Assembly: GCA_951406725.2 (NCBI GenBank) | Contig: OX597827.1 | Location: 59,086,001 to 59,150,000, forward strand | DNA length: 64,000 nt | Reading direction: 5' to 3' | From: Octopus vulgaris | Taxonomy: Eukaryota | Part shown: in pieces, positions 6,229-61,865 of the stretch | How the letters are laid out: each line of letters starts with the position of its first letter | How positions within the stretch are numbered: the stretch's first letter is position 1 | The notes under the pieces: generated by a model | Databases searched by the model: none | What the model saw: only the letters and a program-made list of their open reading frames with translations | What the model was told of the DNA's origin: nothing | Translations under genes and position numbers: made by a program

Positions 6229-6308
6229 TTGATAAAGTTACCGACGTTCCCAACTTGAACGAGCAGATACAGAAAGAGTTACAAGCGAGCACCTTTTACC
6301 TGGCGGCG
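6229..6308 (+). CDS. Ferritin gene A, helix-A exon (V)[26 protein letters not shown]
   Basis: ttttttcag acceptor and gtaagt donor; aligns to ferritin INRQINLELYASYVYLSM (E27, Y34 kept); paralogous to gene B exon 48885-48961. Confidence 0.9.
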
Positions 6309-14026: not shown

Positions 14027-14173
14027 TCTCATTATTTCGAAAGAAGTGATATGGCTTTGCATGGCATTTCTAAATTCTTCCATAAAATGTCCTCTGAAGA
14101 GAAAGGTCATGCCGATAAACTGATGACCTACATGAACATGAGGAAATCTCCACCTAAAACCCCAAATATTTCG
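14027..14173 (+). CDS. Ferritin gene A, helix-B exon SHYFERSDMALHGISKFFHKMSSEEKGHADKLMTYMNMRKSPPKTPNIS
   Basis: tttcag / gtaggt boundaries, 147 nt, phase 0-0; EExxH ferroxidase motif; same length as gene B exon 46679-46825. Confidence 0.95.
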
Positions 14174-17804: not shown

Positions 17805-17840
17805 ATTAAGGATATTTGCGACCTATTCAGCAAAGATGAT
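17805..17840 (+). CDS. Ferritin gene A, B-C loop microexon a1 (IKDICDLFSKDD, 36 nt)
   Basis: tttctctgttgcag / gtaagt; phase 0-0; same length and xxxICxxxS pattern as gene B microexon 45058-45093. Confidence 0.85.
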
Positions 17841-17926
17841 GTAAGTATTGTTGATATAGTAAATATATTTTACCAGACATGACGAAATTCCATGACTGTC
17901 TGTGAGTTTACTGAGAATATCACACA

Positions 17927-17982
<56 letters not shown>

Positions 17983-18879
17983 ACACACACATACACATAC
18001 ACACCCATACACACATACACACACTCACACGAACATGCACACACACATATATATATATGTGTACGGGTGTGTACGTATGCGTATATTCTTTGACTTTATT
18101 CTTTTATTTGTTTCAATACTTATGTACATACACATACATACATACATACATACATACATACATACATACATACATGTATGTGTAAACTCTTATGAAGTAA
18201 CTGATTGGTTTGAATAAATTCCAAATTGATATATCTAATTATTATCCCTCCATAAACCCTATTTTACTAAATAAGGGGCTCGTCTTTGTGATGAACAACT
18301 CAAATTAATTTAGAAAAGAGGTAAATATTATTTTAGCAGCCAAGACGCTTTTAATTAATTTGAGGGTAAATATTGGACAAAAAACGGCAGACCGAACAAC
18401 TTTCATACTACAAAGGAGTCCAATTTTATATTAAAAATTATATTAAAACTATGTAAAGTGTGTATATTTTCCTTTTTTAATTTCTGATATATATTGGATA
18501 ATAAAACGAATGGTTTACACCTGGTAGCTTACTGGGAAAGCACGGTCACTTTCAGTGATTAATAATAAATTCTCGTATATTCCATCATCCGTCTTTCATT
18601 TGCCATATATATATATATATATATATATAAAGCGATGAATAGATTTTTGCCGAAATCATGGTTCACTTTGTTCTCTTACTTTATTATCATCTTATAATCA
18701 TCTCATAATAATGACTTTTATGACTTTTATTACTACCTCAGTTCATCTAAATGTATATATTTGTCGTTACCTGTCATAAAAAGCCTTTTTTCATTTGCAA
18801 TGTGCATTTTCGTTGATTTTTCATATTTTACCCTTACATTTCCACGTGTATTTTATATTTTCTTTTGGTAACATATTTC

Positions 18880-18917
<38 letters not shown>

Positions 18918-18925
18918 GCATCTAT

Positions 18926-18961
<36 letters not shown>

Positions 18962-19151
18962 CGCGTGCATGCATGCATGTATTTATGTATGTATGCATGT
19001 ACGTATGAATGTATGTATGTATGTATATGCATACATACGTTTGCGTAAAAGAATTGTTAAATTACCTTTAAAATATTGCATGCATCTACTCGGCAGCATT
19101 AATGTGAAAACTGCAAACTGATGTTTTTTTATTCTTCTTTTTTTTGTCTAG

Positions 19152-19169
19152 ATTTGCTCGGATAAAAAT
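19152..19169 (+). CDS. Ferritin gene A, microexon b1 (ICSDKN, 18 nt)
   Basis: Long T-rich tract + gtctag acceptor, gtaagt donor, phase 0-0; flanks homologous to microexon b2 at 27058. Confidence 0.65.
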
Positions 19170-20943
19170 GTAAGTAACCTTCCCACACTAAGTATTTAAA
19201 CTGTGTTTTCTTTTGTGTTCTTCGTATGTATAGTATCGTCTAATGATTATGCTATGATAGATCAATGAAGATTTTGTAAGTATCTCTATCCTGCTTATAG
19301 CACTTCCCTAATAATTTGCAAGAGATTTTGGGTGGCCGTCATTCTCCAATCAGGATGTAGCCAGTCTCCAGCAGCTTCACATAGTCGTCTGAACTGAGCC
19401 TAAGGCCCTGTTCAAAGATGAGTGGATGAAGCCTGGTGTGCGGACGTAGTCAGAACGCCTTCTGTTTAGTTAGTCACGGCTTCGTAGTCTGCATCTGTCC
19501 ATGTCTTGTCTTACAGCCTTTGTTGTGTTCACAGAGTTGTGATCTGCAGTCAGGACGGCAATTTATTACCCGGCCCGAATCATCATGATACAGGTAATTA
19601 TTTTCCAGTATTCAGATGGCTAGCAGGGCTCCATGTCAACTAACTGCTTCTCAATTACAACTTTAATCTTTATGCAGGAGTGGCTGTGTGGTAAGTAGCT
19701 TGCTAACCAACCACATGGTTCCGGGTTCAGTCCCACTGCGTGGCATCTTGGGCAAGTGTCTTCTGCTATAGCTCCGGGCCGACCAATGCCTTGTGAGTGG
19801 ATTTGGTAGACGGAAACTGAAAGAAGCCTGTCGTATATATGTATATGTATATATATGTGTTTGTGTGTCTGTGTTTGTCCCCCTAGCATTGCTTGACAAC
19901 CGATGCTGGTGTGTTTACGTCCCCGTTACTTAGCGGTTCGGCAAAAAGAGACCGATAGAATAAGTACTGGGCTTACAAAGAATAAGTCCCGACTAAAGGT
20001 GGTGCTCCAGCATGGCCGCAGTCAAATGACTGAAACAAGTAAAGGAGTAAAAGAGTATACCCTTGAATGTTCAATAATACATCAAACTGTTTTTGAAAAA
20101 AAAGGAGGCTTAATGAAGTCATCACATTCGACCTGAAACCATTTAGCTGAATAGATTTGAATGTGATATCGAAGCACCCTGCCCGTTGGACTCATGCCGC
20201 CCGGTGCAGGAATCGAGCCCACTTCGTGGTTCCAACACATTAACCACTTGGTGACCTGCATTTACATGGCAGTGTAGAGACGTGGCGTGAGTAAGAAAAG
20301 AAAATACTTTTGGGACATAAAAACTCATCTTATTATTGTTCATGTTATCTTGTAGGCAAAGTTGAATGAGAAGAGACTTAAGGCATTCAAGAACTACAAA
20401 AATATGACTCTACTACTGTTGTTCTAAGAACTACTGCTGCTGTTGTTGTTGTTGTTGTTGTTAAGCAACAAGACGGGTAAGGGTGATTAGGTGATGGTCT
20501 AGGGTTTAGGGGCGGGAGATCCCAGACCTTGGAAAAAAAAAACTTTGGTCGTCTTGTTGTTTCGAGGGCTCTTCGTTGACGCCCGACACCACTGAAAGGT
20601 GGCCCTCGAAGTCGCTGGAAATGGAGATCTCCAGGTCCAAAATCTTGAACGGCTACTGCTGCTGTTGGTATTGCTGCAACAGCTTCTTTTCCTCAACAAG
20701 CACAGCCCTGTTTATCATTGTTTATCCCAAAACAGATCAAAGAGGTAAAAGATCCCATCACCTTTAAACGGAATTTGGACAAATTTCTCCGAGTTTTAGT
20801 TCATGCAATTGAAAAACCCGCATTATTTATGGGATGACCCAATATATAGTGGACAGATGCAACATTAAATATACTTAATAGTTTATGAATTTATATGTAC
20901 TAAATTCTTTATCAAACCTACTATCTTATTTTCTCTATTGCAG

Positions 20944-20976
20944 AGTGACGATTGCAAACATTTGTACTCAGCAAAG
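20944..20976 (+). CDS. Ferritin gene A, microexon a2 (SDDCKHLYSAK, 33 nt)
   Basis: ttttctctattgcag / AAG|gtaagt; phase 0-0; duplicated flanks. Confidence 0.8.
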
Positions 20977-21824
20977 GTAAGTATTAATGATACAGTAAAC
21001 ATATCTTACCAGACATGACAAAATTTCATGACTGTGAGTTTGCAGAGAATATCACACAAAGAAAACACACACGCTCACACACACACACACGCACACACAC
21101 GCACACATACACATACACACTCTCACACACGCACACGCACAAACACACGCATACATGCACACACAGGCACACTCACGTGTATACACATACATGCACACGT
21201 ACACATATATATATACGTATGTGTACGTGTATGTGCGCGAACCTTGGAAGCAATCTTGGTAAGAATAAGACCATTATAACAACCAATCAACCTAAGAATT
21301 TTAAGAGGGATAATAATAATAGTGATAATGAAAATAATTATAGTAATGCTGGTAAAGATGATGTAAGTAAGAAAAGAAAATACTTTAGGGACATAAAAAC
21401 TCATCTTGTTATTGTTCATGTTATCTTGTAGGCAAAGTTGGATGAGAAGAGGTTTAAGGCATTCAAGAACTATAAAAGTATGGGTTTACTACTGTTGTTC
21501 TAAGAATTGTTGTTGTTGTTGCAAGTATTGCTGCTGCTGCTGGCATTGTTGGTATTGTTGCAACAGCTTCTTTTCCTCAACAAGCACAGCCCTGTTTATC
21601 ATTATTCCAAAACAGATCAAAGATGTAAAGAAACCCATCACCTTTAAACGGAATCTGGACAAACTTCTCCGACTTTTAAGTTCATGCAATTGAAAAACCC
21701 GCATTATTTATGGGATGACCCAATATATAGTGGACAGATGCAACATTGAATATACTTAATAGTTTATGAATTTACATGTACTAAATTCTTTATCAATCCT
21801 ACTATCTTATTTTCTCTATTGCAG

Positions 21825-21857
21825 AGTGACGATTGCAAACATTCGTGCCCCGCAAAA
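21825..21857 (+). CDS. Ferritin gene A, microexon a3 (SDDCKHSCPAK, 33 nt)
   Basis: ttttctctattgcag / gtaagt; phase 0-0; duplicated flanks. Confidence 0.8.
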
Positions 21858-22094
21858 GTAAGTATTAATGATACAGTAAACATATTTTATTTATTTATTT
21901 TTTTATTTTTATTTTATCTAGTTTCAGCTCACTAGCTGTGGCCATCTTACTAGACATTATAAAATTTAATGACTGTGAGTTTACTGAGAATATAACACAC
22001 AGAAAACACACACGCATACACACTCAGACACATACACATAGAAACACACACACACATACACACACTGCACACACATACACACACACACACGCAT

Positions 22095-22140
<46 letters not shown>

Positions 22141-22168
22141 GAAAAAAGCAACAAGAATGGATTAAAAT

Positions 22169-22253
22169 CTCGGTACGATCGTTTCGTACGAGGACATCTT
22201 TAATAAGCTACAAAAAATGCAGTGAATACAGATGGCTCGTACTCGTCAGCCGA
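22169..22253 (-). ncRNA. Type I hammerhead ribozyme motif, Penelope-associated type
   Basis: Minus strand: tcgg-CTGACGA-GTACGAG..CTCGTAC-GAAA-CGATCG-TA-ccga; complete core, stems I and II, palindromic stem III, GUA cleavage triplet. Confidence 0.75.
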
Positions 22254-23951
22254 AAAAACATCAGAGAATTCCCAAACATCAAAAGGGGTAGATACAAAAG
22301 AGGTTGTAAGATTAACTGCATTGAAGAAAGTTTAATCCATTCTTGTTGCTTTTTTCCTATTTGTAATCACCCCACTTGTCGTATGGTTAACACCATATAG
22401 ATTTCCGGTGCATCCTAGTTAAGGACCATATTCATGTGAATTCTTTAGAATTCACTTGAATCTCAATTACTTAACCGAGTATATCTATATATATATATAT
22501 ATATACGTATGTCTAAACATAATAAAATAGGGTAATAATAAATTATTATTACCATTGGCCTAGCACAAAAAACGAATTAGTCATTAGACTATATATTATT
22601 CATATAGAAATATAATAAGAGGCTTCCAAATAGGAAAGCGTTGTGCTAGAAAGAGCAGTAGAAATCTCAAAAACCAGTAAAAAAGGATAAATTCCCGAAA
22701 GGAATGAAAATTAAAAACGTTTACGATAAACGTTTTTAATTTTCATTCCTTTCGTGAATTTATCCTTTTTTGTGTTCTAGCACAACGCTTTCCTATTTGG
22801 AAACCACTTATTGTATATATATATATATACGTATGTGTATGTGTCTGTAAGTATGCGTATATTTTTGACTTAACTCTTTTACTTGTTTCAGTACTTTGCA
22901 CATACACACATATGCATACATGCATGTATGATGGCACGTCGGACACCATCCCAGAATTTCTGCGTACCCGTGCTATTGCTAGATAGCCGTTGAGCCTGCG
23001 CTAGGTTAATCCTACATTCCAGCAGGTCTTGTTTTTAATCCAGGCTAGCCTGGTGGGGGTACCGGTTTATTCGCCGACAACCGGACCATGCAACAGGTTG
23101 TACTGGATTCCATGTCACGAGTAGCACTTGTGAGAGCTTCATAAGTGACCCGACATAACATACATACATACATATATACATACATATATACATACATACA
23201 CACTACATACATGTATGTGTAAACTCTTATGAAGTAACTGATTGATTTGAATAAATTACGGATAAAATATAAAGTTTATCCAAATTGATATATCTAATTT
23301 TTATCCCTCTATTAACCCTATTTTACTGAATAAGGAGCTCATCTTTGTGATGAACAACTCAAATTTATTTAGAAAAGGGGTAAATATTATTTTAACAGGT
23401 AAGAAGCTTATAAATTTGAAGGTAAATAATGGACAAAAAACGGCAGACAGAACAACATTCATATCACAAAGGAGTCCAACGATTCCGCACAAATTACTGA
23501 TTTAGTAAGCGTTCATATATTTCAGTGTTTAAATAGGCAATATCCTGAACTAATGAAGGGATTATATACGGATGGCGCTTTATTTGCTGTTTATATGTGA
23601 AGTAAGATTAACTGAGAAAGGTGTAGAATAAACGCTTTGAATTTTTAAAGGCCTTAGCACTATGAACCTTCCTGGAGAATGCATGTGTATATGTACATTT
23701 TCTAGATTTTACTTTGGATCGTAATACGGGGCTTTTTAATCAGTATCAGAAACCAACTGAAAACTTCAGATATATGAGTCGAAAATCCAACCATCCAAAG
23801 CAATTACAAATTCTATAATTGGAAGTGTCTCCTTTAGAATTTCTATATTTTCAGCTATTGACAGATGCAGCATTAGATATACTTAATAGTTTACGAATTT
23901 ACATGTACTAAATTCTTTATCAATCCTACTATCTTATTTTCTCTATTGCAG

Positions 23952-23984
23952 ACTGGCGATTGCACAATTTCGAGCCCCCAAAAA
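23952..23984 (+). CDS. Ferritin gene A, microexon a4 (TGDCTISSPQK, 33 nt)
   Basis: ttttctctattgcag / gtaagt; phase 0-0; duplicated flanks. Confidence 0.8.
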
Positions 23985-24103
23985 GTAAGTATTAATGATA
24001 CAGTAAACATATCTTACTAGACATTACAAAATTTCATGACTGTGAGTTTGCTGAGAATATCACGCAAAGAAAACACACACGCTCACACACACACACACAC
24101 ACT

Positions 24104-24160
<57 letters not shown>

Positions 24161-24474
24161 AGACACATACACACACACAGACGTGCACACACGCACACAC
24201 ACATACACATATATATATATGTATCTGTATATGTATGTATGTACGAGTATATTCTTTGACTTAATTTTTTTACTTCTTTCATTACTTGTGCACATACATA
24301 CATTTACATACATCCATATACATACATACATACATACATGCATGCATGCATACATTCATACATACATACATACATACATACATACATACATACATACATA
24401 CAAACATACATACATACATACATACATACATACATACATACATACATACATACATACATACATACATACATACG

Positions 24475-26450
24475 TGATGGCCACCCTTTACAAACATTAT
24501 GCGCTCTATGACTGACTTATATTTTGCATTTGCGGCTCCGTTGGTGGCTAATGAAACCTGCTCTTGACAAGCATACACGACTGCAAACATTGCAAACTAA
24601 GCTTTCCCCATTCACTACACTAGCAGTGCGCTTTCGAGCAGTACGCTTAAATTCTTCGTGCAGAATACGTGCTCTCTCAAAGGTGTTGATCCCCTCCTTA
24701 ACCTGCTCCCTCCATCTGTGCCAATGACAGTCATTGCTCTCCCATTTCATCTCCTGCGTATCACAGGCCTTTAATGAGGACTTGACAAAATCCTTAATTC
24801 GTAGCCTCGGTTTCTGCCGAGGTCTCTTTCCACTAACAAGTTCTCCATATAGCATCTGTTTAGCGATCCGGCTATCCTTCATTCTAATAAGGCGTCCAGT
24901 CCAAAATAACCAGTGCTTGTGCGCCATCCCTGCAATACTCAAGATATAAGCTTTCCTCAGGACCTGTTTGTCTTGTGTTTTTAAGATCCAGCCAAAATTC
25001 AGAATGTGTCTCAGACATCTCTGATGAAAGCGTTCAATGACCTTTACATGACGTGTGTAAAGGGTCCATGTCTCACATGAGTAAAGAGGCGATGTCAGCA
25101 CACATGCACGGTACACAACAATTTTTGTTTCCCTTGTGATGCCATGCTGGGACCAGATACGAGACTCAAGAGACCGGAAGGAATCAGTTGTTCTCAGCAG
25201 CATGAAAGATATTTCATCATCCAGAGATCAAGAACGGCTGAGTGTGCTGCCCAGGTAGACAAACTTGTCTTGCAATTTCAGTATTGTTCCTTCAACCAAG
25301 ATAGCTGATTCCACATACGGATTTCCTGGTGCAGGCTGCAATATAACAATTGTCTTCTCCAGACTAATGCTGAGTCCAAATGCCTTGCAAGAAACAACAA
25401 TACGATTCATAAGTATTTGCATGTCATCCACTGTATGAGTGACGAAGTCACAGTCATCTGCATAAAAGGTGTCACGAATAAGAGACTGGAAACTTTTGAA
25501 TTGGCCGCAAATCGGCGCAGATTAAAGAGGGGGCCAGAAGATCGATTCCTGACATATATTCCCATAGTCCTAACCTTGGCAAAGCATGAGTAAAAACAGC
25601 AGCAAAGTACAAAGAAAAGAGAGTTGGGGCAAGGATGTTACCCAGCTTGACACCATTCTCTACAGGAATGGGTCCCGCCATACCACCACCACCATTGATC
25701 CAAGCATCCATTCCATCATGAAATGATTTAATTATAGATATAAAGTGATACGGACATCCAAGCTTGCCTAGCATTTTCCATAGCAGGGTCTTATCCACAG
25801 TATCAAAGGCATTTGTTAAATCAGTGGACAAGATCCATATCCTGCTCATAACACTTCTGCAAGTCCTACTGTGAAAATTATATCCATCGCCCCTCTACCA
25901 AATCGGATTCCACGTTAAGATTCAGATGGGACATCATTTACGAGACACCCATTCAGGCTGATAAGAAGAATATTTGCCAGAACCTTGCCAGCAGATGATA
26001 GTTGAGCAATAGCTCTGTAGTTACCACACGTTATTCTGGCCTCTTTTCCTTTATAGAGAGGAAGAATAATTGCATCCTTCTAGTCTGTAGGCATTGCACC
26101 ATTCCCTCAGACTATACTAATAAGTTCATGAAGTGGCTGTATGATTTAATCACCACTAAATCGTAAGAGCTCAGCACAAATTCCATCCCTTCCGGGTGCC
26201 CTAACAAGATTCAATTTTCTTGTTGCTGTCATTACCTCATCTATTGAGGATGTTGAATTTACGGAACCAATGATAGGTCTCTCTTGCATAGTATCAATCA
26301 CTGTTTCATCCACTGTTTCATTCACTGTTTCATAGTATCAATCACTGTTTCATCATGGTTCAGGAGTTAAAAGAAGTGTTCAATCCAGCGACCTGTGATT
26401 TCTGTTGCTTTAGTAAATAGAGTAGCAAACCCCTTGGAAAACAAAGGAGC
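24475..26450 (-). mobile_element. RTE-clade LINE, 5'-truncated, degraded RT
   Basis: DLTNAFDTVD, GVKLGNILAPTLFSLYF, FYADDCDF, KFVYLGS, LYSCETWT, C-terminal CNVCSRVC..H; tail abuts (TACA)n. Confidence 0.9.
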
Positions 26451-27057
26451 TGATGCCTTATAATGTAACACACTCACCGGTAAAATTTCCACTTATTTCT
26501 TATTTTTATTTTCCTAAAATTTTCGTTGGTCTTGCAACCTTTTTACCGGTGAGTGTGTTACATTATGAGGCACAAAAAGAAAATGACTCTCCCCAGACAC
26601 AACAGAATATGCTTCAACACACGAACTCATGTAAAGAATCTTGCAAACCAAATCCAAAACGAAACATATATATATATACACGCATATATACATATATATG
26701 ACGAGCTTCTTTTGAGTTTTCGTGTACCAAATCCACTCACAAGGCTTTGGTCGGCCCGAGGCTATAGAAGAAGACACTTGCCCAATGTGCCATGCAGTGG
26801 GACTGAACCCGGAACCATGTGGTTGGTAAGCAAGCTACTTACCACACAGCCACTTCTGCGTATGTATATACGTATGAATGTATGTATGTATGTATGTATG
26901 TATGTATGTATGTATGTATGTATGTATGTATGTATGTATGTGTGTATGTATATGCACACATACATTTGCGTAAAAGCATTATTGAATTACCTTTGAAATA
27001 TTGCATGTATCTACACAGCAGCATTAACATGAAAGCCGTTAATTTCTTTTTGTCTAG

Positions 27058-27093
27058 GTTTGCACTGAGATAACAGGAACAGAGCATACCCAA
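27058..27093 (+). CDS. Ferritin gene A, microexon b2 (VCTEITGTEHTQ, 36 nt)
   Basis: tttctttttgtctag / gtaagt; phase 0-0; starts [LIV]C like gene B microexon 43327-43371. Confidence 0.8.
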
Positions 27094-27248: not shown

Positions 27249-27319
<71 letters not shown>

Positions 27320-27423
27320 GAGGCGCGATGGCCCAGTGGTTAGTCTTATGGCATTGGGGTGTGTTCATAGTACCGTTTACTCGATCGACCAATTGAGCAA
27401 GCGAAACTATGAACGCACCTATA

Positions 27424-27460
<37 letters not shown>

Positions 27461-27580
27461 TGTGTGTGTATGTGTGGAGGCGCGATGGCCCAGTGGTTAG
27501 TCTTATAGCATTGGGGTGTGTTCATAGTACCGTTTACTCGATCGACCAATTGAGCAAGCGGAACTATGAACGCACCTATA

Positions 27581-27615
<35 letters not shown>

Positions 27616-27622
27616 CGTGTGC

Positions 27623-27665
<43 letters not shown>

Positions 27666-27781
27666 TGTGTGTGTATGGAGGCGCGATGGCCCAGTGGTTA
27701 GTCTTATAGCATTGGGGTGTGTTCATAGTACCGTTTACTCGATCGACCAATTGAGCAAGCGGAACTATGAACGCACCTATA

Positions 27782-27834
<53 letters not shown>

Positions 27835-28146
27835 TGTGTGGAGGCGCGATGGCCCAGTGGTTAGTCTTATAGCATTGGGGTGTGTTCATAGTACCGTTTA
27901 CTCGATCGACCAATTGAGCAAGCGGAACTATGAACGCACCTATGTGTGTGTGTGTGTGTGTGTGTGCGTGCGTGTGCGTGCGTGTGCGTGCGTGTGTGTG
28001 GGTGTGTGTGTGTGTGTATGTGTGTGTGTGTGTGTGTGTGTGGAGGCGCGATGGCCCAGTGGTTAGTCTTATAGCATTGGGGTGTGTTCATAGTACCGTT
28101 TACTCGATCGACCAATTGAGCAAGCGGAACTATGAACGCACCTATA

Positions 28147-28191
<45 letters not shown>

Positions 28192-28301
28192 TGTGTGGAG
28201 GCGCGATGGCCCAGTGGTTAGTCTTATAGCATTGGGGTGTGTTCATAGTACCGTTTACTCGATCGACCAATTGAGCAAGCGAAACTATGAACGCACCTAT
28301 A

Positions 28302-28366
<65 letters not shown>

Positions 28367-28486
28367 TGTGTGTGTATGTGTGGAGGCGCGATGGCCCAGT
28401 GGTTAGTCTTATAGCATTGGGGTGTGTTCATAGTACCGTTTACTCGATCGACCAATTGAGCAAGCGGAACTATGAACGCACCTATA

Positions 28487-28567
<81 letters not shown>

Positions 28568-28683
28568 TGTGTGTGTGTGGAGGCGCGATGGCCCAGTGGT
28601 TAGTCTTATAGCATTGGGGTGTGTTCATAGTACCGTTTACTCGATCGACCAATTGAGCAAGCGGAACTATGAACGCACCTATA

Positions 28684-28761
<78 letters not shown>

Positions 28762-28910
28762 AGGCGCGATGGCCCAGTGGTTAGTCTTATAGCATTGGGG
28801 TGTGTTCATAGTACCGTTTACTCGATCGACCAATTGAGCAAGCGGAACTATGAACGCACCTATAATGTGTGTGTGTGTGTGTGTGTGCGTGCGTGTGCGT
28901 GCGTGTGTGT

Positions 28911-28952
<42 letters not shown>

Positions 28953-29055
28953 AGGCGCGATGGCCCAGTGGTTAGTCTTATAGCATTGGGGTGTGTTCAT
29001 AGTACCGTTTACTCGATCGACCAATTGAGCAAGCGGAACTATGAACGCACCTATA

Positions 29056-29110
<55 letters not shown>

Positions 29111-29240
29111 TGTGTGGAGGCGCGATGGCCCAGTGGTTAGTCTTATAGCATTGGGGTGTGTTCATAGTACCGTTTACTCGATCGACCAATTGAGCAAGCG
29201 GAACTATGAACGCACCTATAATGTCTGTGTGTGTGTGTGT
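27249..29240 (+). repeat. Tandem array of 11 copies of a ~105-bp core (SINE head + hairpin) separated by variable (GT)n spacers
   Basis: Cores start near 27319, 27476, 27677, 27840, 28042, 28197, 28382, 28579, 28760, 28951, 29116. Confidence 0.97.
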
Positions 29241-29365
29241 GGGGGGGTGAATATATGTATGGTCTGTTTCGGCGATTCACACGATCCGAAAATAAAGATA
29301 CGCTTATTTACTATAGTTATAATATAGAACTAACTACCTCTAATCTTTTCTGTCTTTTTTTATAG

Positions 29366-29479
29366 GACATATGTAAGAAAGACAACATTCCCCTATACGT
29401 GATGAAATTAGCGCATAAATTGGAATTACTGGTCTATGATAAACTGGTTAACATAGTTAAAGAATCAAACGACGAGGAG
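29366..29479 (+). CDS. Ferritin gene A, helix-C exon DICKKDNIPLYVMKLAHKLELLVYDKLVNIVKESNDEE
   Basis: ctttttttatag / GAG|gtaagt; 114 nt phase 0-0, same length as gene B exon 42311-42424; E107-equivalent kept; absent from ORF track. Confidence 0.9.
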
Positions 29480-34281: not shown

Positions 34282-34434
34282 TTGAAACATTTTATTGAAC
34301 ATGAATATCTAGACGAGCAAATTGAGTCCATCAAACAAATCTCCGACTACGAAATACAAATGGCGAGATTGGGATGTGGTTTGGGCTTCTACATTTTCGA
34401 CCAGCAGTTTCTTCAGAATGACGCAAAGAGTTAA
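34282..34434 (+). CDS. Ferritin gene A, last exon (helices D/E) LKHFIEHEYLDEQIESIKQISDYEIQMARLGCGLGFYIFDQQFLQNDAKS*
   Basis: ttatttcag acceptor; matches ferritin signature DFIExxYLxEQVxxIK and GLGEYxFD; stop at 34432-34434. Confidence 0.96.
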   Translation: MKHFIEHEYLDEQIESIKQISDYEIQMARLGCGLGFYIFDQQFLQNDAKS

Positions 34435-42310: not shown

Positions 42311-42424
42311 CTGTGGGTCCATACTGATATCAACAATATTTCGAAGGGAATTATAGACAGCTTTTTCTAGGCCTACGGCATCTTCCATAGCAAGCAAGGG
42401 GACATCTTCTGCATGGATCTTTAC
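42311..42424 (-). CDS. Ferritin gene B, helix-C exon VKIHAEDVPLLAMEDAVGLEKAVYNSLRNIVDISMDPQ
   Basis: tttttcag / CAG|gtgaac; 114 nt phase 0-0; matches ferritin AMExALxLEKxVNQSL...DPQ. Confidence 0.95.
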
Positions 42425-43326: not shown

Positions 43327-43371
43327 CCCAGAACATCCAGAAATTGTTGCTGGCATCACAATAGCACATAG
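43327..43371 (-). CDS. Ferritin gene B, B-C loop microexon b (LCAIVMPATISGCSG, 45 nt)
   Basis: ctttttttcttttataaatttccag / GGG|gtgagt; phase 0-0. Confidence 0.8.
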
Positions 43372-43702: not shown

Positions 43703-43743
<41 letters not shown>

Positions 43744-44273
43744 ATATATATATGTAGAGGCGCAATGGCCCAGTGGTTAGGGCAGCAGACTCGCAGTCGT
43801 AGAATCGCGGTTTCGATTCCCAGACCGGCGTAGTGTTTATTGAGGTTGCACCTGCTGAGGAAGGTCCCTTTGATATGATTAAATACTGTAAGTTTTTGGA
43901 TAATTTTCGGTTAAAAGTTGGCGGTTTTTTTACTGTAGCCAGCGAAGGACTGCGTCTGCGCAGTAAAATTTGAAAAGTTAGTTCGTATAAACACGAGACA
44001 AGTAGTCTTGTTTGTCTCGTGTGGATATGTTTAACCCTATGTTGGACCTGCTGAGGAAAGTCAGACCTTGTGAGTTCCCCTTGACTCGCTAAAAGAAGAT
44101 TAGAAACCAATTGGTCCAGGAAACTAGATGGTAAATGATTTTCATTTCCAAATTTATTCCTGTCGAATTTTATCCCCAATTTTTGTGGTTATAGAACCGA
44201 GCTGTTCTTTCTAGCGTGTAGAATCCCTATAAGTGGTTTCCTTGTGTGTTTAAATATACACTATATCGTATGA

Positions 44274-45057: not shown

Positions 45058-45093
45058 ACATTTGTAGGAGAGATGTTTACAAATGGCATCAAC
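45058..45093 (-). CDS. Ferritin gene B, B-C loop microexon a (VDAICKHLSYKC, 36 nt)
   Basis: ttttctctctctctacag / gtaagc; phase 0-0; similar to gene A a1 (IKDICDLFS) and a2 (DCKHL). Confidence 0.85.
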
Positions 45094-46678: not shown

Positions 46679-46825
46679 CTGGATATTCCTCACTTCCGGT
46701 GTAGTCAGTCGCTTGTTCATGTAAGTCATCAGTTTGTCCGCATGTTCCTTCTCTTCAAGAGACATTTCCATAAAAAATTTGCCGAAACCGCGGAGTGCAA
46801 TTTTGCTGCTTTCGAAAAAATGGCC
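46679..46825 (-). CDS. Ferritin gene B, helix-B exon GHFFESSKIALRGFGKFFMEMSLEEKEHADKLMTYMNKRLTTPEVRNIQ (GC donor)
   Basis: tactttcag acceptor; CAG|GCAAGT donor gives 147 nt, identical to the paralogous exon; EEKEH motif. Confidence 0.93.
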
Positions 46826-60894: not shown

Positions 60895-61865
60895 CAGGGT
60901 GCATAAGATATTTGAGGACAGATTTATGTTTATAAAAAAAAAGAAACAGATATATAACAGATAATGACTTTATTTATCAAAAAATTCTATGAGGATAAAA
61001 ATAAACCTTCTTTTCTATAATGTTATTCAATAAAGCCACCTTCAGCTTCAACAAATGTTTCTATATGAAATCTAAATCATCTACATGCTCGAATCAAATG
61101 GTCCTGGTTCATTTTGGACATTACTCTCATTATGGCAACTTTCAAAGAATCTTTGGTCTTATGGGTGTGTTCATTAACCTTTCTCTCAACAATGATCCAC
61201 ATGTAATAGTCCAATGGATTAAGATCTGGGGAATTAGGAAGCCAAATGTTAGGAGTTATGTGATCATGAAAATTTGGAGCCATCGATTCCTGTGTTACTA
61301 GAGCCATATATTATAGTGCAGAGTTTTACTGAAACATATATGGCCTTCCATTGCATACACTTTCTATCCAGGGCTTAACAATTATTTCCAGGACCTCAAT
61401 GTAGGTGGCAGAGTTAGCTCTAAGGCCTTGTGGAAAGAAGTAAGGAGGCATCATATGTCCTTCATATGGCAGTTGTATGCATAACACTTGGAGCTTCAGA
61501 AGGGTCTGCACATTTCTTCTGTTAACATTTTGATCTTGGTTGAAGTTTTTCTCGTTTGAGGAAAACCAAATCAAATCATCTTATGGATTTTTCAGTTTGT
61601 TTAAGAGCTTTTTAGATCTGATGTAATGATTTTCTTTTGCTTTTCTGACAAATTGACCTTTCCTCATCATATAAGACTTACATCTGATGTCTTCGTGAAC
61701 AACATTTCTGACTGTTCCTTCTGACACATGGAGATTTTTTGCAATTGACCTTGTGGGCTTTCTTGGACTGTAATCAACAGTCTGTTGTACTTGCTGGATA
61801 AATTCAGGTGTTCTAATGATTTCAGAGCGTTTAAAATGCTTTTTATGCTTTGATACTGGTGAAAC
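60895..61865 (-). mobile_element. Tc1/mariner-superfamily transposon remnant
   Basis: WFSSNEKNF, MPPYFFPQGLR, RPYMFQ, WLPNSPDLNPLDYYMW; terminus TACAGGGTG; related remnant at ~19300-19600. Confidence 0.8.

Follow-up and report, generated by a model that had tools for sequence, protein, structure and literature searches.

Microexon coding and turnover of an expanded B–C loop in an octopus secreted-type ferritin

Among protein cages ferritin is one of the most highly conserved, and the locus analysed here raises the question of how the loop between helices B and C of one Octopus vulgaris ferritin gene came to be coded by six microexons, and whether these are joined as a nearly fixed set or in freely varying combinations. 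The gene was studied in a stretch of 64,000 bases (the window, G000:C14:59086001-59150000), in which it lies on the plus strand and is hereafter called the focal gene. The six microexons are real exons; the 64-way splice variability proposed for them in a first-pass annotation of this DNA is unproven. Comparison across the secreted-type paralogues of the genome gave a new finding, namely that microexons code for this loop at each of the five loci examined and turn over by tandem duplication and loss.

Six microexons in a secreted-type ferritin gene

The helix-B exon retrieved a 247-residue protein, CAI9733139.1, named Octopus vulgaris ferritin at NCBI, which maps exactly to ten exons (upstream signal exon, A, B, five microexons, C, and D/E). 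The focal protein scored 64.8 bits against the Pfam profile PF00210 (curated cut-off 24.5), its AlphaFold2 (AF2) helices at residues 37-64, 70-96, 175-203, 207-238 and 242-257 correspond to a four-helix bundle plus helix E, and all Foldseek matches listed for the model were ferritins. Seven ferroxidase ligands are kept (E48, Y55, E82, E83, H86, E190 and Q221), whose counterparts in human H numbering we take to be E27, Y34, E61, E62, H65, E107 and Q141, and the three-fold channel position D131 is occupied by His. The N-terminus, judged by composition, consists of a basic start, a hydrophobic core (mean hydropathy 2.43, residues 12-22), and small residues. A search for iron-responsive elements gave 0 Rfam matches in 124 kb, the stretches near cytosolic ferritins likewise yielding none that could serve as a positive control. 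Judged from sequence, the gene codes for a secreted-type (yolk-type-related) ferritin subunit, for which secretion is predicted, and a 24-subunit iron-storing cage would be expected by analogy with the family.

Between exons B and C, both of phase 0 where they border the array, the microexons follow one another in the order a1 b1 a2 a3 a4 b2 (Table 1), and the coordinates, splice sites, phases and translations claimed for them in the first-pass annotation were all confirmed. Every one of them is bounded by a pyrimidine-rich AG acceptor and the donor GTAAGT, is of phase 0-0, 18-36 nt long, a multiple of three in length, stop-free, and codes for at least one Cys; together they make up 189 of the 774 coding bases. 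When the 15,192-base B–C interval was scanned with a strict pattern (strict acceptor, 6-51 nt, GTAAGT), the plus strand returned exactly these six exons and the minus strand 0. Elsewhere in the genome, 677,094 strand-bases were scanned as well and gave 16 matches, 6 of them in B–C introns of ferritin paralogues; taking the other 10 as background, 0.22 matches are expected in the B–C interval (P(≥6) = 1.5e-7), and chance splice-like motifs were ruled out as the source of the six found.

In a search of the 2.8-Gb genome, an a-type exon with its flanks matched at full length only at its four copies, the remaining 21 of the 25 matches listed spanning merely a 30-40-base end of the query, which argues against a dispersed repeat. 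Since full-length matches are confined to this gene and the exons are used in public models, an origin from a transposon or as pseudo-exons was likewise rejected. At window 27250-29260, in the last B–C intron, a unit of 155-200 bp that includes a TG microsatellite is repeated about 11 times head to tail; the sister gene described below has a single copy of the unit at the equivalent place, and a 68-bp match lies at 43713-43780.

Public gene models of two Octopus species already include the microexons as coding sequence, with a2 the only one treated as optional. The protein cluster of the focal gene holds three full-length models and one 51-residue fragment: Octopus sinensis RefSeq isoform X1 (XP_029645065.1, 258 residues) includes 6/6 microexons, isoform X2 (XP_029645066.1, 247 residues) and O. 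vulgaris CAI9733139.1 include 5/6 with a2 skipped, and no other exon combination occurs among the three. The earlier reading of the locus as a secreted-type ferritin with an expanded, translated Cys-rich B–C loop is supported. Since a2 and a3 are identical over their first 19 nt, the a2 skip could be a read-mapping artefact. No other loop variant was found among 11 matches from 109 candidate proteins, and no shorter protein fragment with loop words or other loop junctions, which is weak evidence, protein databases being poor detectors of minor isoforms.

These records bear on the idea that splicing follows the manner of micro-exon genes (MEGs), in that each of the inner four exons, or each of the six, would be left out on its own depending on tissue or cell, giving mosaic 24-mers for immune or gamete recognition. 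Such splicing would be in keeping with the phase 0-0 and near-identical splice sites of all six exons, with the one annotated skip, and with a fast nonsynonymous divergence of the kind described in the accessible text on MEGs (PMC4350168). We nevertheless judge it improbable, as just two forms occur among the three full-length cluster members, no further loop variant appeared in the protein searches (weak as these are for minor isoforms), every donor has the consensus GTAAGT typical of strong inclusion, and the outer Cys pair of the loop is invariant. Free in-frame skipping of any subset (64 combinations), as first proposed, is not supported so far by any record found. It is equally doubtful that skipping of inner microexons would give varied disulfide loops in mosaic 24-mers, and with them a natural splice-diversified multivalent display particle, positively selected in a host–microbe iron conflict or in egg provisioning.

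Gain, loss and trimming of loop microexons among paralogues

All five secreted-type loci examined in the O. vulgaris genome have Cys microexons in the B–C intron, in 6, 2, 2, at least 2, and 1 copies, exon status at the gene at C14:67.65 Mb and at the gene right of the window being assigned in part by a pattern scan. No strict-pattern match was found around three cytosolic-type ferritin loci (L012-L017). The neighbouring paralogue on the minus strand of the window has one a-type and one b-type microexon, as the first-pass annotation had stated; the sister paralogue at C14:58.82 Mb has two b-type microexons and no a-type; the gene at C14:67.65 Mb has a 39-nt and a 27-nt microexon and two possible 15-nt ones; and the diverged ferritin gene right of the window has a single microexon of 33 nt.

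The flanks of the sister's two b exons differ from each other at 13/142 positions and from those of b1 and b2 at 14/110 to 25/139. Since they are closest mutually, the sister would either have independently duplicated its b exon and lost the a-type, or had its copies homogenised. Exon b1 of the focal gene is a b-type exon of 36 nt that has been halved: its old donor now reads CTAAGT, and a new internal GTAAGT lies 18 nt earlier with the frame kept. Birth and death of exons across the paralogues, together with the fast divergence of exon copies described below, go beyond what the first-pass annotation had noted.

A tree built on the helix columns of 43 chosen proteins joined the focal gene and the C14:58.82 Mb gene as sisters (100/97), with Argonauta GAB1604040.1 outside them at weak support (85/44). 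This protein, the probable orthologue, has a 51-residue two-Cys loop, and its accession is consecutive with that of the orthologue of the neighbouring gene, the same adjacency as in O. vulgaris. Because of the tree placement, the two-Cys Argonauta loop and the consecutive accessions, the expansion probably occurred later than the Argonauta split and earlier than the split between O. vulgaris and O. sinensis.

The focal gene (window 14027-34434) and its sister (G000:C14:58807010-58828977) are separated by about 240 kb and inverted relative to each other. Identity between the two is 90-96% in the upstream, first-exon (signal) and helix-B tracts, whereas exons A and C have diverged strongly; the similar tracts look like patchy gene conversion. 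Shared regulation and co-assembly of the two genes are possible.

Table 1. Exons and related features of the focal gene and of the neighbouring paralogue (window positions unless a genome position is given)
Feature	Position	Strand	Remarks
Focal gene, signal-peptide exon	G000:C14 about 59071543-59071635		14.4 kb upstream of window; exact match to CAI9733139.1 residues 1-31
Focal gene, exon 2 (helix A)	6229..6308	+	Exact match to CAI9733139.1 residues 33-58
Focal gene, exon 3 (helix B and start of B–C loop)	14027..14173	+	Ends in NIS glycosylation sequon; Pfam PF00210 30.4 bits
Microexon a1	17805..17840	+	36 nt; first conserved loop Cys; short helix 108-112 in AF2 model
Microexon b1	19152..19169	+	18 nt; aligned with b2 and paralogue b exons
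Dead ancestral donor of b1	19188..19193	+	CTAAGT; GTAAGT in sister copies
Microexon a2	20944..20976	+	33 nt; sole exon annotated as skippable; present in XP_029645065.1, absent from XP_029645066.1 and CAI9733139.1
Microexon a3	21825..21857	+	33 nt; two Cys
Microexon a4	23952..23984	+	33 nt
Microexon b2	27058..27093	+	36 nt; second conserved loop Cys; helix 156-163 in AF2 model
Focal gene, exon for loop end and helix C	29366..29479	+	One further Cys; exact match to CAI9733139.1 residues 160-197
Focal gene, last coding exon (helices D, E, stop)	34282..34434	+	Exact match to CAI9733139.1 residues 198-247
Neighbouring paralogue, helix-C exon	42311..42424	-	
Neighbouring paralogue, b-type microexon	43327..43371	-	45 nt
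Neighbouring paralogue, a-type microexon	45058..45093	-	36 nt; in P0185, P0186, P0010
Neighbouring paralogue, helix-B exon	46679..46825	-	Non-canonical GC donor

The fifth of the five loci is a highly diverged ferritin-like gene on the minus strand (G000:C14 about 59151000-59170600, window coordinates 64756-84594; L020, L021). It has the same exon plan, with a signal exon, exon A, exon B of 135 nt, a single two-Cys microexon of 33 nt, exon C of 108 nt and exon D/E; its ferroxidase ligands are apparently lost, and its helix-B exon gives a weak Pfam ferritin match (E=0.056). The public model P0186 (368 residues) skips this helix-B exon and fuses the gene to the minus-strand ferritin of the window. 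An open stretch of 174 nt at window 61682-61855 (-), between these two minus-strand ferritin genes, looks like an exon: its splice sites are good, and it matches LRR_4 weakly (E=0.038). At L009-L010 (G000:C14:67644112-67650071, minus strand), there are candidate microexons of 39, 27, 15 and 15 nt, and in models from O. bimaculoides and O. sinensis (P0022, P0164 and P0165) the intron before exon C is apparently read in place of the 27-nt exon; P0016 likewise runs through a microexon donor. At L025 (G000:C15:66288868-66289359, minus strand) there is a ferritin reading frame of cytosolic type without introns, which may be a retrocopy.

Loop structure and divergence of the exon copies

A profile search covered 1.84 billion representatives, and loop lengths were measured on the proteins of more than 150 residues in a set of 162, with P0042 and P0063 omitted, as their longer 'loops' are internal repeats of ferritin helices. 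The B–C interval of the focal ferritin spans 91 residues with 8 Cys, against about 29 residues in ordinary ferritins, 48-55 in coleoid secreted forms, and 61-75 in other Cys-loop forms. Two loop Cys are invariant in 21/21 aligned secreted mollusc-type ferritins and are carried by the outer microexons a1 and b2, which argues that these outer exons are constitutive. The loop has 8 Cys in the six-exon form and 7 when a2 is skipped, and with this odd count a thiol could be freed. Helices A and C and the B–C loop are described as pointing outward on the ferritin cage (PMC13207978). In the AF2 model of the six-exon form, short helices were predicted at a1 and b2, and the predicted local distance difference test score (pLDDT) was below 50 for residues 121-153; the model of the two-exon sister paralogue had no segment with pLDDT below 50 and a helix at 114-123. 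On our reading, a predicted disulfide between the outer Cys staples an ancestral hairpin, and the additional exons would make up a flexible arm.

The added Cys might instead provide a metallothionein-like surface site for Cu, Zn or Cd, or cross-link cages into storage granules, and the 8 loop Cys of the long form, or the 7 of the a2-skipped form with one free to link subunits, would suit such a role. Metallothioneins, however, have dense CxC clusters, whereas the loop Cys lie about 8-11 residues apart and form none; the putative signal peptide would imply an oxidising secretory route, the residues between the Cys diverge fast, and we consider this use of the Cys very improbable.

Copies of the exons were compared with their flanks pair by pair. 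Because an AT-rich insertion follows a3 and would inflate the differences, flank counts for a2/a3 and a3/a4 were taken over shorter stretches. Exons a3 and a4 differ at 8/33 positions, all nonsynonymous and 7 of them transversions, against 5/112 in the flanks; a2 and a4 differ at 13/33 exon positions against 5/112 in the flanks; and a1 and a2 show 16 nonsynonymous differences in 27 sites against 20/112 in the flanks. Exon differences are also several-fold higher than those of the distal intron (13/246 for a2/a3, 20/114 for a1/a2). With 7/8 changes being transversions, CpG decay was ruled out as the cause of the a3/a4 divergence. For three disjoint exon pairs pooled, the nonsynonymous proportion (pN) was 35.5/80.3 (0.44), against 38/366 (0.10) in the flanks (p=1.5e-11). 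Between O. vulgaris and O. sinensis, 4/6 differences fall within the 52 microexon residues (p=0.019), and the focal and sister genes together changed at 14/455 residues against 1/221 in the neighbour (p=0.028). Relative to the sister paralogue, the helix A and C exons differ at 51/144 positions and the D/E exon at 18/112 (p=6e-4). This pattern suggests diversifying selection on the outer cage surface and is no proof of it, since the flanks may be constrained or converted.

Several results weigh against selection and against the timing given above. The pooled exon pN of 0.44 is not significantly above the synonymous proportion (pS) of 0.25 (p=0.22), and pS itself exceeds the flank divergence of 0.10 (p=0.03), so that splicing constraint or gene conversion may be keeping the flanks alike; the sister genes share tracts, 90-96% identical, that look converted. 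No significant exon excess was obtained for a2 vs a3 (p=0.13), the focal gene taken alone did not change significantly faster between species than the neighbour (6/247 vs 1/221, p=0.13), pN and pS in exons A+C do not differ significantly (p=0.44), and the Argonauta position has weak support (85/44).

The rate results, with the conversion-like tracts, would also suit a tolerated, near-neutral expansion, in which symmetric exons in a permissive loop drift under relaxed constraint with Cys and frame kept, the flanks are conserved by splicing constraint or conversion, all six exons are constitutive, and the five-exon models are mapping artefacts. The loop middle is predicted to be disordered in the AF2 model, and the 19 nt shared by a2 and a3 can make support for a b1-a3 junction ambiguous. 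Against drift stand the keeping of Cys and frame in every copy, the in-frame rescue of b1, exon differences several-fold above those of the distal intron too, the a3/a4 changes, all of them nonsynonymous, and the same a2 skip in models of two species; we regard a near-neutral expansion as a serious possibility, though on the unlikely side.

The evidence leans, with modest confidence, towards a mostly constitutive, disulfide-stapled and selected surface loop, with perhaps one cassette exon, in a secreted ferritin. Coleoid secreted ferritins would share an outward B–C loop whose Cys pair is coded by two phase-0 microexons, a and b. The symmetry of such exons lets them be copied, deleted or shortened with the frame intact, as these loci show. 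In the focal gene, unequal tandem duplication, probably after the Argonauta split, gave four a-type and two b-type exons, and b1 was re-trimmed in frame with the death of its donor. Annotation points to a usual mRNA with five or six microexons and a2 as the one likely cassette. Exons a1 and b2 would form the ancestral disulfide-stapled helical hairpin, and b1-a2-a3-a4 a flexible, Cys-cross-linked arm displayed in 24 copies on a cage with its iron-oxidising core intact. Selection on a binding surface would be the most likely reason why the amino-acid sequences of the copies, and those of the outward helices, diverge fast; candidate pressures are a receptor for uptake into oocytes or some other tissue, or escape from microbial iron capture. 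Variation would arise mainly over evolutionary time and not by combinatorial splicing.

Relation to known ferritins and micro-exon genes

A Cys-bearing B–C loop insertion is already known from molluscan secreted (yolk-type) ferritins and is not new here. Further characters of this type are a 5' UTR that lacks an iron-responsive element, and synthesis in the digestive gland with storage in oocytes. The accessible texts describe signal peptides in molluscan secreted ferritins, a 42-residue B–C loop insertion in snails, with an expression peak in digestive gland (PMC10799875), and an insertion of about 40 residues in a chiton secreted-type ferritin (PMC6351634). The novelty first claimed for the locus was thus overstated with respect to the loop insertion and also to its microexon coding, which is common to all secreted-type paralogues examined. 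In the accessible text of the molluscan secreted ferritin papers, microexon coding and expansion go unmentioned, and the metal-binding residues of the chiton secreted type are reported as replaced, whereas the focal ferritin keeps all seven ligands. Patella and scallop yolk ferritins also keep E61, E62, H65 and Q141.

Named relatives of the focal ferritin include Patella and Ylistrum yolk ferritins and a chiton ferritin, and the two loop Cys of the Patella and Ylistrum proteins align with the focal pair. The yolk ferritins of Lymnaea stagnalis and Biomphalaria glabrata and the chiton secreted type likewise combine a signal peptide with a B–C loop insertion. Other Cys-loop proteins have 2-5 Cys in 48-75 residues, in contrast to the longer, eight-Cys focal loop. 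In the tree, the coleoid clade (96/93) joins a Patella clade (96/80), and scallop and chiton rows fall across the midpoint root. The coleoid secreted ferritins compared (Argonauta GAB1604040.1 and GAB1604039.1, O. bimaculoides XP_052828645.1, Sepia pharaonis CAE1166471.1 and Logan P0009-P0015) share a clade (99/95, 13 rows), a two-Cys loop core and, where DNA was seen, the phase-0 exon plan; their loops have 48-55 residues with 2 or 4 Cys, whereas six microexons occur only in the focal Octopus gene. The differences among ten Logan variants of one secreted ferritin (P0013 and P0175-P0183) are arranged in mosaic blocks, a pattern that recombining alleles, paralogues or chimeric contigs could give. 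Four signal-bearing ferritins with 66-75-residue, three-Cys B–C loops (P0029, P0038, P0077 and P0135) form a separate clade (99/99) outside the mollusc-type clade, and because of this the B–C loop insertion may have arisen more than once.

Searches in which subscription journals were mostly not covered found no paper on molluscan ferritin microexons or cephalopod ferritin exon duplication, and none giving any of six accession numbers; the octopus papers checked name ferritin without identifying the focal gene. Microexon coding and turnover of a ferritin loop are not described in this searchable literature, the exons themselves being already annotated.

At these loci the outer loop of a ferritin evolves as microexons are gained, lost and trimmed, in several paralogues independently, with the catalytic core unchanged. 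Paralogues with 1, 2 and 6 modules offer a set in which to compare uptake by oocytes, binding to receptors and resistance to iron capture by microbes, and a handle on the role of the unexplained loop insertion in molluscan secreted ferritins. A natural ferritin gene with about 60 extra B–C loop residues bears on nanocage display if the protein assembles. Errors in gene models are also flagged, some public models omitting loop microexons or fusing neighbouring genes.

We know of no Cys-rich B–C loop array in insect secreted ferritins. These are secreted, as predicted for the focal type, and according to the accessible text have disulfide bridges in their 24-mer (PMC4783870). Closer in exon design, though without homology, are the MEGs of Schistosoma and VAL-6 with its MEG-like part, described in the accessible text as arrays of small symmetric exons in secreted proteins under accelerated nonsynonymous change (PMC4350168); the focal gene resembles them in that 6/6 of its microexons are symmetric and 18-36 nt long. 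In MEGs the coding region consists mostly of microexons and alternative splicing supplies a pool of variants, whereas in the focal gene the microexons form a minor share of the coding bases, set inside a conserved enzyme fold, and two forms are annotated.

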